Origin: an uncultured bacterium
Lineage (GTDB): Bacteria; Patescibacteriota; Minisyncoccia; Minisyncoccales; JAQTVQ01
Direction of reading: 5' to 3'
Assembly (NCBI GenBank): GCA_903839905.1
Contig: CAIMDX010000069.1
Coordinates: 1 to 32,638, forward strand
Length of the DNA: 32,638 nt
Shown: piece by piece, positions 8,411 to 27,772 of the stretch
Numbering within the stretch: the stretch's first letter is position 1
Layout: each line of letters begins with the position of its first letter
The notes under the pieces: model-generated
The model's input: only the letters and a program-made list of their open reading frames with translations
What the model was told of the DNA's origin: nothing
The model's database searches: none
Made by a program: the position numbers and the translations under genes

Positions 8411-8573
8411 AATTTCTAATTACTAATATCTAATTAAGCCCCAATGTCCAAATCCCAAAACCCAACCAAGCCCCAAACCCTAATGACCAAATCGTTCGTT
8501 TTAGCCTGCCGGCAGGCAGGGATTTTAGAAATTGGGATTTGGTTGGTCATTGGACATTGGGATTTGGGATTTT
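8411..8573. repeat. inverted heptamer-repeat element A with central CCTGCCGGCAGGCAGG palindrome
   Basis: Left arm aagcccc aatgtcc aaatccc aaaaccc aacc aagcccc aaaccct aatgacc; right arm is an imperfect reverse complement with the same phasing. Confidence 0.85.
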
Positions 8574-8578
8574 AGAAG

Positions 8579-10006
8579 CTAGCATCCAAATTTTTCCTTT
8601 AATAATCCGACCAACTCCGCTATCTTCACCCTTTCCTGCTGCATAGTATCCCTGTCTCTCAAAGTAACATCATTATTTTGCAGGGTATCAAAGTCCACTG
8701 TTACGGCATACGGAACGCCGACTTCGTCCAAGCGGCGATAGCGGCGGCCGATGGAACCTGTTTCGTCGTATCGGCACATAAAAAGTTTTTTAAGCGTCTC
8801 GTGGATTTCTTTGGCTTTGGCGACTAATTCAGGCTTGTTTTTTAAAAGTGGCAAGACTGCTACCTTAACAGGCGCCAGGTTTTTAGTAAACCTCAAAATC
8901 GTTTCCGCTTCTTTTACAGCTTCCGTAGTCTGGGTCCGACCTCCTTGGATTTCTTCAAAAGAATCGCACAGAACCGCGAAAAACAGCCTTTCCACTCCGC
9001 AGGAAGGCTCTATCACAAAAGGAATGTAAGAACTTTTATCCGTTTCGTCAAAATATTTCAAATCCGTTCCCGAAAACTTTTCGTGGCGGCCAAGATCAAA
9101 ATCGCGGCGGTTGGCAATACCTTCAATCTCCGCCCATCCCCAAGGAAATTTATACTCCACATCCACGCAAGCCTTGGCGTAATGGGCTAATTCATCTGGG
9201 CGGTGCGGCCTGAATCTTAAATTTTCTTCTTTTAAGCCAAGGTCTTCTACATACCAGCGCATCCTTTCCTTGGTCCAGTATTCAAAAGCTTTATCGTCTT
9301 CGCCGGGTTTGATAAAATATTCCAATTCCATTTGCTCAAACTCGCGGCTACGAAAAATAAAATTGCCGGGAGTGATTTCGTTGCGGAAAGCTTTGCCGAT
9401 CTGGGCAATGCCGAAAGGAAGTTTTACTCTTTGCGTGTCCAAAATATTTTTATAACTGGCGAAAATTCCTTGGGCTGTTTCCGGACGCAAATAGGCCACT
9501 GAAGCGCTGTCCTCAACCGGACCGACAAAAGTCCTAAACATCAAATTAAATTTGCGCGGCGCGGCCAGCTCTCCTCCACAATCAGGGCATTTGGCGCTGG
9601 CCAAAACTTTAGCCATCTGATTGATATCCGCCGTGTCTTTGACTTCTTCGTCCGTAAAACCAAGCTTCTTAAGCTCGCCGGAATCTCTTAATTTTTCCAT
9701 CAAATGATCGGCTCTGAATCTTTTATGGCAAGCTTTGCATTCCGATAAAGGATCAGAAAACTCCGTGGTATGCCCGGAAGCTTCCCAAATTCTCGGGCTC
9801 ATAATAATTGAACTGTCCAAACCGACGATATCGTCTCTTTTCTGGACCAAAGCCCTCCACCAAGTCTTTTTAATATTATTTTTCAGTTCCGTTCCCAAAG
9901 GGCCAAAGTCAAAAAACCCGCCAAAACCGCCGTAAATTTCGGAACTCGGAAAAACAAGTCCCCGCCTCTTAATCAAAGAAAGAATCTTTGCCGCTGTATC
10001 TTCCAT
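8579..10006 (-). CDS. glyQS: glycine--tRNA ligase, alpha2 (GlyQS, archaeal/eukaryotic-type)
   Basis: KRRG.VFPSSEIYGG, LRPETAQGIF, GKAFRNEITP, REFEQME, IEPS.GVERL, GSIGRRYRRLDEVG. Start likely MEDTAA at 10006. Confidence 0.96.
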   Translation of the reverse strand: MEDTAAKILSLIKRRGLVFPSSEIYGGFGGFFDFGPLGTELKNNIKKTWWRALVQKRDDIVGLDSSIIMSPRIWEASGHTTEFSDPLSECKACHKRFRADHLMEKLRDSGELKKLGFTDEEVKDTADINQMAKVLASAKCPDCGGELAAPRKFNLMFRTFVGPVEDSASVAYLRPETAQGIFASYKNILDTQRVKLPFGIAQIGKAFRNEITPGNFIFRSREFEQMELEYFIKPGEDDKAFEYWTKERMRWYVEDLGLKEENLRFRPHRPDELAHYAKACVDVEYKFPWGWAEIEGIANRRDFDLGRHEKFSGTDLKYFDETDKSSYIPFVIEPSCGVERLFFAVLCDSFEEIQGGRTQTTEAVKEAETILRFTKNLAPVKVAVLPLLKNKPELVAKAKEIHETLKKLFMCRYDETGSIGRRYRRLDEVGVPYAVTVDFDTLQNNDVTLRDRDTMQQERVKIAELVGLLKEKFGC

Positions 10007-10082
10007 AGCCTTTGGGCCCTTCCCTTTACCTCTTTTGGCTTTCGCCTGCAAGGTTAAAGTTTGCCGGGTTTTATTGATTATT

Positions 10083-26295: not shown

Positions 26296-26300
26296 AAAGT

Positions 26301-27653
26301 CTATATTACTTCCTGGATTCCTCCCTTCATATAAAAATCGTCTTCTTTCTTGGAATCCATTTCGCCAGAAACAATTTTTTTAAATCCCTCTATTGTATCT
26401 TTAAGCGGCACATATTTTCCCTCTTTTCCGGTAAAAATCTGGGCCACGAAGAATGGCTGGGAAAGGAATTTTTGTATTTTTCTGGCGCGCTGGACGATCA
26501 AACGGTCTTCTTCTGCCAGCTCTTCCACTCCCAAAATAGAAATAATATCTCTTAGATCTTTATATCTCTTTAATATCCTGACCACTTCGCTGGCCACAAA
26601 ATAATGCTCTTGGCCGACAATACTTGGGTCTAAAATGGTTGATGTTCCTTCTAGAACATCAATGGACGGATAAATTCCCAAGTCCGCGATCAAGCGGGAC
26701 AGAACAATAGTAGCGTCCAAATGCGAAAAAGTGGAAACCACAGCCGGATCAGTTAAGTCATCGGCCGGCACATAGACCGCCTGGATGGAAGTAATGGATC
26801 CGTCTTTGGTTGAAGTAATCCTTTCCTGTAAAGCGCCGACCTCCGAAAACAAAGTCGGCTGATAGCCGGTTTGCGAAGGGATGCGGCCCAGCAAAGTGGA
26901 AACCTCGCAACCTGCCTGCACAAAACGGAAAATATTATCAATAAAAAGCAAAGTGTCTTTCTTCTCCTGGTCCCTGAAATGTTCGGCAATGGTCAATCCT
27001 GTTAGAGCGATCCTAAAACGCACTCCTGGGGTTTCATTCATTTGGCCGAAGACAAGGCTGGTATTTTTCAATACTCCCGAATTTTCCATATCCACGAGAA
27101 TATCTTTTCCTTCGCGGGAGCGTTCGCCAACGCCCACAAAAACCGAAACGCCTTTATGGACAGCGGCGATATTTCTGATCAACTCTTGGATCAAAACCGT
27201 TTTGCCCACGCCGGCTCCGCCGAACAGGCCGACTTTTCCTCCCTTTGGGACCGGCGTCAAAAGATCAATGGCCTTGATGCCTGTTTCCATAATTTCAATT
27301 TTTGTTTTCTGCTCTTCCAAGGTCGGAGCGGGTTTGTGGATGGGAGCGTAGTTGACGGCTCTGATCTCGCCCCTACCGTCAATCGGCTGGCCTAAAACAT
27401 TCAAAACCCTACCCAAAATTTCCTTGCCTACCGGAACCTTGATAGGCGATCCGGTATCAATAACATCGTCCCCTCTTTTTAATCCGTCGGTGGGGCCCAT
27501 CGCCAAAGCACGGACCTTATTGGCTCCAATATGCTGTTCCACTTCCAAAATCAAATCCCTTCCCTTCACGCTTAAAGCGTTGAACATTTGAGGAAGATCA
27601 TTCTCAAATTCAATATCTATTACCGGTCCTAATATTTGAATTATTTTTGCCAT
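26301..27653 (-). CDS. atpD: F1 ATP synthase beta subunit
   Basis: [48 protein letters not shown]. Confidence 0.98.
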
Positions 27654-27658
27654 ACATC

Positions 27659-27772
27659 TTTAGCTTGTAGGAATTAGCTTGTAGCTTGTAGGAGTCTCGC
27701 CTTCGGCGAGAAAGGAATAATATTGCCGAAGGCAATATTTCTCTACAAGCTACCAGCTACAACCTACAACCT
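27659..27772. repeat. inverted heptamer-repeat element D with two internal GAA/TTC-triloop hairpins
   Basis: Left TAGCTTG repeats; right CTACAAG CTACCAG CTACAAC CTACAAC; hairpins TCTCGCC-TTC-GGCGAGA and AATATTGCC-GAA-GGCAATATT. Confidence 0.85.

Follow-up and report, generated by a model that had tools for sequence, protein, structure and literature searches.

Heptad-armed hairpins between genes of an uncultured patescibacterium as probable gene-less relatives of IVS-like four-helix-bundle cassettes

Introduction

Intervening sequences (IVS) of ribosomal RNA (rRNA) genes, as found in Coxiella burnetii, Leptospira and Brucella, have terminal inverted repeats that form a long stem and a gene for a four-helix-bundle protein (S23p or 23S_rRNA_IVP) in the loop. 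They are regarded as selfish elements whose mobility mechanism is unknown and which RNase III removes from the RNA (PMC4990558). In Coxiella the S23p-bearing IVS is excised in this way, and Warrier et al. report heptameric repeats of variable number before the S23p open reading frame (ORF). For bacteria of the candidate phyla radiation (CPR), a preprint describes 23S_rRNA_IVP ORFs in rRNA insertions, with ORF-bearing and ORF-less forms at the same sites (bioRxiv 10.1101/2024.02.27.582315). Here we describe four intergenic heptamer-repeat elements, termed A to D, in a stretch of 32,638 nucleotides from an uncultured bacterium (the window; contig C69 of assembly GCA_903839905.1, hereafter G000), and compare them with these and other known systems.

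Heptamer repeats have been known since about 1990; the short tandemly repeated repetitive (STRR) heptamers of cyanobacteria are said to have been described by Mazel in 1990, and small dispersed repeats nested in heptameric repeats were reportedly found by Elhai in 2008. To our knowledge, the 23S rRNA IVS protein family has thousands of members and no known function. TAACTGA repeats are recorded from Beggiatoaceae, cyanobacteria and Bacteroidetes (PMC4679880) and GGGAATC / GGGGAYT repeats from Xanthomonas, where each genome has 70-75 convergent pairs, and Nostoc (PMC4692102). According to the sections consulted, such repeats are intergenic tandem units of variable copy number, often near start codons, sometimes in inverted pairs and patchily spread across phyla; they are treated there as G-quadruplex or regulatory sequences, with no link to four-helix-bundle genes or insertion polymorphism. 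Our literature search returned no paper uniting heptamer repeats and the IVS protein as one element class outside rRNA, and none on gene-less, multi-copy heptad-hairpin forms. The case presented here ties together these two long-standing loose ends. We conclude that A to D are probably cargo-less members, resembling MITEs (miniature inverted-repeat transposable elements), of an IVS-like hairpin-cassette family, in whose complete form the loop encloses a PF05635/TIGR02436 four-helix-bundle gene.

The G000 assembly comprises 779,264 bases in 81 contigs, with a completeness of 94.5% and a G+C content of 41%, and is repeatedly contained in lake and freshwater metagenomes. The small genome size suggests a reduced, CPR-like bacterium. 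By crude ORF calls about 88% of the genome is coding, and almost all genes of the window lie on the minus strand. The comparisons covered 41 genomes, namely G000, four congeners (G001 to G004) and 36 genomes of the same order; other samples were represented by assembled contigs of sequencing runs (X2-X5 and others), which were aligned in place of reads.

Results

Each of the four elements lies in a spacer between two minus-strand genes, so that the coordinates and the co-oriented housekeeping-gene setting given in an earlier note on this sequence hold. They are built alike, each from a pair of arms in which degenerate 7-base units (heptads) are arrayed in inverted orientation. The elements and their parts are as follows.

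8437..8572, minus strand (set by the loop core): element A, a copy of the A family of about 115 nt, in the spacer between the start of an M16 peptidase gene (8400) and the stop of the prolyl-tRNA synthetase (ProRS) gene (8579), both on the minus strand
8493..8502, minus strand: loop core of A, reading AAAACGAACG on the minus (coding) strand
16754..16870, minus strand: element B, a hairpin of AAWNNAA-type heptads with 25-nt arms and a loop core at 16807-16814, directly upstream of the arginyl-tRNA synthetase (ArgRS) start (16745) among minus-strand genes
23237..23358, minus strand: element C, a hairpin of TCAAANN-type heptads with 37-nt arms and a loop core at 23299-23306, between a NUDIX gene (23208) and the PolX gene (23370), both on the minus strand
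27662..27693, plus strand: left arm of element D, made of AGCTTGT / AGGAATT heptads and identical at 32/32 positions to the left arm of a gene-bearing cassette of G003 (locus L005)
27694..27741, plus strand: loop of D, with two small GC hairpins and an AAAGGAA stretch but no ORF
27742..27772, plus strand: right arm of D, ending 2 nt before the atpG stop codon and matching, reversed, an arm of a gene-bearing cassette of G004 (locus L004) at 36/38 positions; D lies between atpD (27653) and atpG (27775), minus-strand genes inside the ATP synthase operon

The link to the four-helix-bundle gene rests on G000 itself and on its relatives. The sole PF05635/TIGR02436 gene of G000 (L001:1009-1359; PF05635, 97.3 bits; TIGR02436, 101.8 bits against a cut-off of 24) is located between two tRNA-Met genes and enclosed by inverted TAGTT-type / AACTA-type heptad arrays, which are the arms of the gene-less tRNA-spacer hairpins of the same genome. 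Among the 41 genomes, 21 have a PF05635 match. We examined 30 such loci, one of which had too short a flank; at 24 of the 29 testable loci the upstream and downstream flanks were inverted copies of each other above the threshold, set as the best of 30 shuffles, with period 7 at 17 of the 24 and period 8 at several others. Each cassette tends to be marked by a heptamer of its own. That similar arrays flank TIGR02436 genes, which the earlier note had put forward, is borne out.

In L005 and L004 a four-helix-bundle gene between tig and clpP is placed inside AGCTTGT arms. Beyond the shared left arm, D matches L005 at 5/7 and 10/12 positions over the small hairpin and the AAAGGAA stretch, and in L005 this stretch and a small GC hairpin precede the four-helix-bundle gene, as in the D loop. 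Reversed, D also matches the arms of L004 at 29/30 and 36/38 positions. For comparison, the flanking atp genes of these congeners show 79-83% identity to the window. Judged by its sequence, D is best read as a gene-less copy of the AGCTTGT-armed filled cassette. The same arm types thus occur with and without the four-helix-bundle gene.

A comparison of orthologous sites, on which the earlier note had let its proposal of a mobile cassette depend, came out in favour of it: the elements are insertions that vary among congeners, and at one orthologous site the element is missing, gene-less or gene-filled according to the genome. The following states were observed.

Site A: an A-family hairpin in G000; a 39-nt spacer with a weak array and no hairpin in G001; a TTCAATT-type hairpin in G002; a C-like hairpin with a nested palindrome in G003; a larger, different element in G004
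Site B: a hairpin in an insert of about 195 nt in G000; none in G001-G004
Site C: the C hairpin in G000; a solo array in G001; a solo array plus other structured sequence in G002 and G003; genes 4 nt apart in G004
Site D: AGCTTGT type in G000 and G004; AGCTTGT type with the loop inverted in G003; AATTTTC type in G001 and G002
tig-clpP site: filled, with AGCTTGT arms, in G003 and G004; filled, with GTAAAGC arms, in G002; a 29-nt spacer in G001; GTAAAGC arms without a gene and with an A copy nested in the loop in G000
tRNA-Met site: filled in G000; spacers of 15-32 nt in G001, G002 and G004

None of the four window sites is gene-filled in the five genomes, and the filled state is known from the two other sites. 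B belongs to an insertion which runs from 16746 to about 16943 and separates the ArgRS start codon from a conserved upstream region, and in the congeners the ArgRS start lies a few bases from this conserved block; a contig from an independent study covers B without change. The insert parts the start codon from a AAAAGAGG-like stretch, which stands directly 5' of the start in the congeners. Beside the filled cassette in the tig-clpP spacer of G002, a 97-aa NTP_transf_2 ORF (L074, 459-752) was seen, apparently outside the arms.

Long-range inverted arms, with loops of 90-3000 nt, were also screened for other cargo; none was found, the matches being separate A-copy pairs or other palindromes, at a threshold which also missed the known filled cassette.

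All four elements fold as long imperfect hairpins, with loops of 9-60 nt that contain no ORF. On the plus strand the folding energies (kcal/mol) were -54.5 for A, -26.4 for B, -42.2 for C and -55.2 for D, against -40.1, -16.7, -25.1 and -24.9, respectively, for dinucleotide shuffles; the corresponding z scores (plus/minus strand) were -3.7/-3.4, -3.1/-3.1, -5.0/-2.6 and -8.7/-9.4. The earlier note had called the arm-to-arm identity poor and had argued from it against RNA stems and slippage and for putative protein-binding or recombination sites. The first statement is correct for the variable heptad positions, which mismatch in 7-10 of 28 copies (25-36%) of the A family, but does not prevent folding beyond the shuffles; the argument against stems and slippage does not stand, given this folding and the heptad gains and pure tandem array described below. 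The elements as a group do not have the make-up of intrinsic terminators, in which a T run comes after a GC-rich stem on the sense strand: the terminator-like hairpins of this genome are a separate class with an AAAA-GC stem-TTTT layout, and D is inside the atp operon. On the coding strand a T run follows the stem in B and in none of A, C and D.

The heptad parse of A and C, including the unit of 4-5 nt after the fourth heptad, holds by reading. The left arm of A runs AAGCCCC AATGTCC AAATCCC AAAACCC, AACC, AAGCCCC AAACCCT AATGACC and is mirrored by the right arm; the left arm of C consists of four heptads, AAATC and three heptads. Moreover, A, B and C have in common a loop core that is asymmetric and, read on the coding strand, AAAACGAA-like. 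The elements had been described as unrelated in sequence, which is refuted by this core and by comparison with the rest of the genome: by blastn, A has 51 loci (38 of at least 60 nt), B 23 (5), C 27 (20, mostly cross-matches to A loci) and D 5 (2), while the tRNA-spacer type has 16 (5). C is a diverged relative of A.

For the A family, 28 full-length copies could be oriented and aligned, and five more could not be oriented. The consensus of about 115 nt has a CCAANNN left arm, the loop core AAAACGAACGAT and an NNNTTGG right arm, with CCAA-CCAA as the phase break. All 28 copies, at unrelated loci, show one mosaic order of about 16 different heptads and differ chiefly by exchange among AAATCCC, AAGCCCC, AAACCCC, AATGTCC, AATGACC and AATGCCC. 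Because the A copies share one consensus, the layout common to A and C (four heptads, a short unit, three heptads) was inherited from a common element plan; it reflects common descent and not an independent constraint. In the central stem of 17 bp, pairing is kept at the invariant AA and CC positions in 27-28 of the 28 copies.

The families differ strongly in abundance between genomes. G000 has 21 scored A-family matches among 66 candidates, compared with 5 in G002, 6 in G003, 1 in G001 and 0 in G004; of the 36 order-level genomes, three gave 1-3 matches. With at least 38 copies against 0-6 in the four congeners, G000 shows a roughly ten-fold, lineage-specific burst of the A family. C-like copies are amplified in G003 (9 places, 76-81% identity), and matches to D-type arms, flanks included, are more numerous in G003 (19) and G004 (26). 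Several copies sit at contig ends. In the sense of lost cargo, the description of the elements as empty is borne out for the D type and the tig-clpP site only; the A family resembles a repeat that stands by itself, gene-less and amplified.

Copies are also nested in one another. A 20-nt palindrome of the CCTGCC..GGCAGG type is present in five of the 28 A copies, four times at the position it has in A (8504..8521, unstranded, beside the core) and the fifth time elsewhere; in the form CCTGCC(TA)CCGGCAGGCAGG it has at least 21 copies genome-wide, nested in heptad elements. Because of this copy number we take it for a second, smaller insert. The same palindrome flanks a 115-aa ORF without known family (C38:3055-3402). 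Element A is itself adjoined by an outer solo array of AATTTCT-type heptads at 8410..8436 (unstranded), next to the M16 peptidase start codon and without a right arm here; elsewhere, for example at C1:12295-12483, AATTTCT heptads enclose an A-family copy as outer arms in inverted orientation.

On a genome-wide scale, the 7-base periodicity exceeds chance, as the earlier note had suggested checking. In a strict scan, lag 7 gave four segments, lag 3 one and the remaining lags of 4 to 12 none; at a medium threshold lag 7 gave 48, lag 14 gave 16 and every other lag from 2 to 13 at most 8; and at a loose threshold the numbers were 118 for lag 7, 52 for lag 14 and at most 44 for the other lags. The loose-scan segments merge into 93 elements, 71 of which are mostly intergenic. 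Furthermore, 65 strong hairpins were found in G000 and none in each of three shuffled genomes. The best arm period was 7 in 32 of the 65, the remainder being terminator-like GC stems and other palindrome families. There are at least six heptad families in G000. Elements occupy 56 of 661 spacers between coding sequences (CDS), 10 of 69 tRNA-CDS spacers and five of nine tRNA-tRNA spacers, or 65 of the 387 spacers of at least 60 nt (about 17%). The TAGTT-type hairpin is the one found in the five tRNA-tRNA spacers, and its family is almost confined to tRNA flanks; other heptad families occupy junctions between protein genes.

Arms and arrays change by whole heptads. Behind position 22748, contigs of runs X2, X3 and X5 have two extra heptads (14 bases); these runs come from two studies, one of the three being from an independent study. 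The array in question is a short solo array, AAAATCA AAATGAA AAATGAT (22749..22772, unstranded), between a ThiI-like gene and the NUDIX gene. At C36 37090-37160, ten perfect tandem AGCTTGT units, the heptamer of D, stand between two plus-strand ORFs without an inverted partner.

The loop can also flip between the arms. In G003 the D loop is the reverse complement of that in G000 at 94% identity. Contig joints of the opposite-strand type, between the inner ends of the D arms (27691-27743), appeared in one contig each of runs X4 and X5. A flipped loop would give such strand-change joints at D, and the perfect sequence shared by the D arms is probably too short for a fold-back during assembly; as both runs belong to the study of the likely source sample, these contigs are a hint only. 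Single low-depth joints at C (23294-23318) and D (27684-27748, 13 letters in place) are too weak for use, and a contig joint from 8568 to 16848 represents another locus where two families abut.

Discussion

Our comparison of sites, families and samples brings together three states at one site, a ten-fold burst, a tRNA-flank family, an oriented loop core, loop inversion and whole-heptad change. The reading we favour is that of gene-less members of an IVS-like cassette family, and the elements can be set beside several known systems. With rRNA IVS the elements share the stem-forming inverted repeats and, in the full form, the four-helix-bundle gene in the loop. They differ in lying between protein or tRNA genes instead of in rRNA and without an ORF, in having whole arms built as heptad arrays where the IVS have a short run, and in forming multi-copy families, with at least 38 copies of one type. 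Since the G000 assembly, at its 94.5% completeness, lacks a 23S rRNA gene, a comparison with a resident rRNA IVS was impossible. With the described heptamer repeats the elements share some near-identical units, AACTGATAACTA occurring in the tRNA-spacer family and GGGATTT / TTGGTCA in that of A, and, as in STRR sequences, the 7-nt units are tandem and intergenic and vary in length, here by 14 nt. The arrays studied here differ in belonging to defined hairpins with loop cores and filled counterparts.

MITEs and repetitive extragenic palindromes (REPs) with their hairpin-forming pairs (REPINs) resemble the elements in being short, non-coding, palindromic, multi-copy and intergenic, with lineage bursts, assembly breaks at contig ends and nesting. 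Both multiple copies and insertion polymorphism were found (A is missing from G001, B from G001-G004 and C from G004). Neither a target-site duplication nor a transposase-bearing parent was seen, the only parent form found being the four-helix-bundle cassette. In contrast to MITEs, the full-length form here carries the four-helix-bundle gene, and the arms are periodic arrays instead of unique terminal repeats.

Such inserts could be tolerated in transcribed non-coding spacers, that is operon junctions and tRNA spacers here and rRNA helices elsewhere, by virtue of their stem. By analogy with rRNA IVS, the stem would probably be cut by RNase III, a gene for which is encoded in G000. Fold-back templated repair may keep the arms roughly symmetric, and spread would require a function acting in trans. 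For annotators the case is a warning: in reduced genomes, many an odd AT-rich spacer is an insertion rather than a regulatory region.

Several findings weigh against this reading. There is one four-helix-bundle gene, with TAGTT arms, for at least six heptad families; most empty elements of G000 therefore lack a resident cognate gene, and this single gene is not cognate to all of them. No mobilising enzyme was linked to the elements in G000, and no target-site duplication could be seen by eye where A, B and the tRNA-Met cassette join their flanks. In all five genomes site D holds, at the same position, an element of one or the other of two different heptad families, starting 2 nt after the atpG stop and reaching to 8-9 nt before the atpD start, a constancy which could point to a host function rather than selfish insertion. 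Only three compensatory cells occur across 17 stem pairs in 28 A copies, the core orientation relative to flanking genes is the same in 13, opposite in five and could not be assigned in six cases (a weak bias), and sense folding exceeds antisense folding in 26 versus 17 of 44 elements (Wilcoxon p = 0.07). Thus neither strand bias, core orientation nor covariation gives a sign of selection on the RNA stem. Finally, the inverted-loop contigs are single, of low depth (2.4-2.7) and from the study that also yielded the likely source sample.

The best-surviving alternative is that the hairpins serve the host as intercistronic RNA elements, selected as processing, stability or translation signals between cistrons and tRNAs, with arrays at start codons acting in translation as proposed for TAACTGA repeats and the heptamers of Nostoc. 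That site D is taken up in all five genomes, though by two unrelated heptad families, agrees with it, as do the hairpins in more than half of the tRNA-tRNA spacers and the presence of RNase III, and by reading B and D end 5-8 nt 5' of start codons with no obvious Shine-Dalgarno sequence. Moreover, MacGregor 2015 (PMC4679880) places TAACTGA repeats mostly just 5' of start codons, and deletion of heptamer repeats changed a reporter in Nostoc, according to a preprint (10.1101/2022.06.06.494920). Yet each of A, B and C is lacking in one or more congeners whose gene order is the same (B in all four), the A-family copy number differs about ten-fold among congeners, and neither a clear sense-strand folding advantage nor appreciable covariation was found. 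Over 39 CDS-CDS cases the distances from elements to start codons have no peak, and those to stop and start codons in general form no pattern, with segment ends and ORF calls being crude. As the sole account we regard a host role as unlikely. It may nonetheless stay alive through the constant occupancy of site D and the arrays near start codons, and since inserts can be co-opted it is compatible with their origin as cassette relatives.

A further-reaching form of the cassette reading, which we offer tentatively and with low confidence, is that heptad-armed hairpins form a separate class of selfish DNA which extends across phyla and in which a pentameric four-helix-bundle protein binds its own arms, gene-less copies are mobilised in trans, insertion aims at hairpin tips and transcribed spacers, and each heptad family has its own niche, such as TAGTT beside tRNA genes and CCAANNN at CDS junctions. 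Insertion at hairpin tips, if true, would explain the nesting of the palindrome in an A copy, of A copies in GTAAAGC or AATTTCT arms and of the gene in TAGTT arms. Heptamer repeats, rRNA IVS and a large protein family would then be parts of one system.

It is very unlikely that the elements are of the REP/REPIN kind, moved as single-stranded hairpins by the single Y1 (HUH) transposase of the genome, which resembles a REP-associated tyrosine transposase (RAYT). The gene (247 aa; Y1_Tnp, 42.4 bits against a Pfam cut-off of 23) has a REP-associated tyrosine transposase as its best NCBIfam match, albeit with a score of 43.1 below the cut-off of 80, and multi-copy intergenic hairpins without visible target duplication would suit such an enzyme. 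It is flanked and interrupted, however, by another GC-rich palindrome, ATGGTCAAGGCC-N-GGCCTTGACCAT, and not by heptad arms, and this palindrome family looks like the gene's own REP. The gene, which is IS200-like, lies at L068 1284-2075 (G000:C24, about 8610-9400), with the palindrome on both sides and one in-frame interruption; similar AAAA-stem-TTTT palindromes elsewhere look like bidirectional terminators.

Ordinary microsatellites that expand in place by slippage and are palindromic by chance or local template switching, without mobility or a link to the four-helix-bundle gene, are hardly credible as an explanation: whole-heptad length differences among samples, the unpartnered (AGCTTGT)x10 array and the solo arrays at sites A and C in G001 agree with them, but as a full account they are contradicted by the mosaic, phase break and asymmetric core shared by 28 A copies at unrelated loci, by the 32 bases over which the mosaic D arm is identical to the arm of a cassette that lies in a different species and at a different locus, and by the 24 of 29 four-helix-bundle genes enclosed in such arms.

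Other observations

Near-perfect heptamer arrays also occur inside reading frames. One of the AATTTTC type lies within the PolX frame, in the PHP domain region (window 23861-23913), and others (AATTTTC, ATTTGGG) are found within long ORFs at C79 775-830, C68 2265-2319 and C5 4204-4249; the depth of aligned contigs rises at these arrays, as a repeat would give.

A further hairpin family with ACCCTGTTAAAT...ATTTAACAGGGT arms was seen at window 17137-17207, at L001 1555-1625 and at G000:C68 698-3516. The window also contains a tmRNA gene (RF00023, 131.7 bits) at 20137-20487 on the plus strand, opposite to most window genes.

A free-standing ORF resembling LAGLIDADG_3 homing endonucleases (51.8 bits) is located between tRNA-Asp and tRNA-Met at L001 217-888 (G000:C61); the corresponding spacers of G001 and G002 (15-26 nt) lack it, and G004 has part of it.

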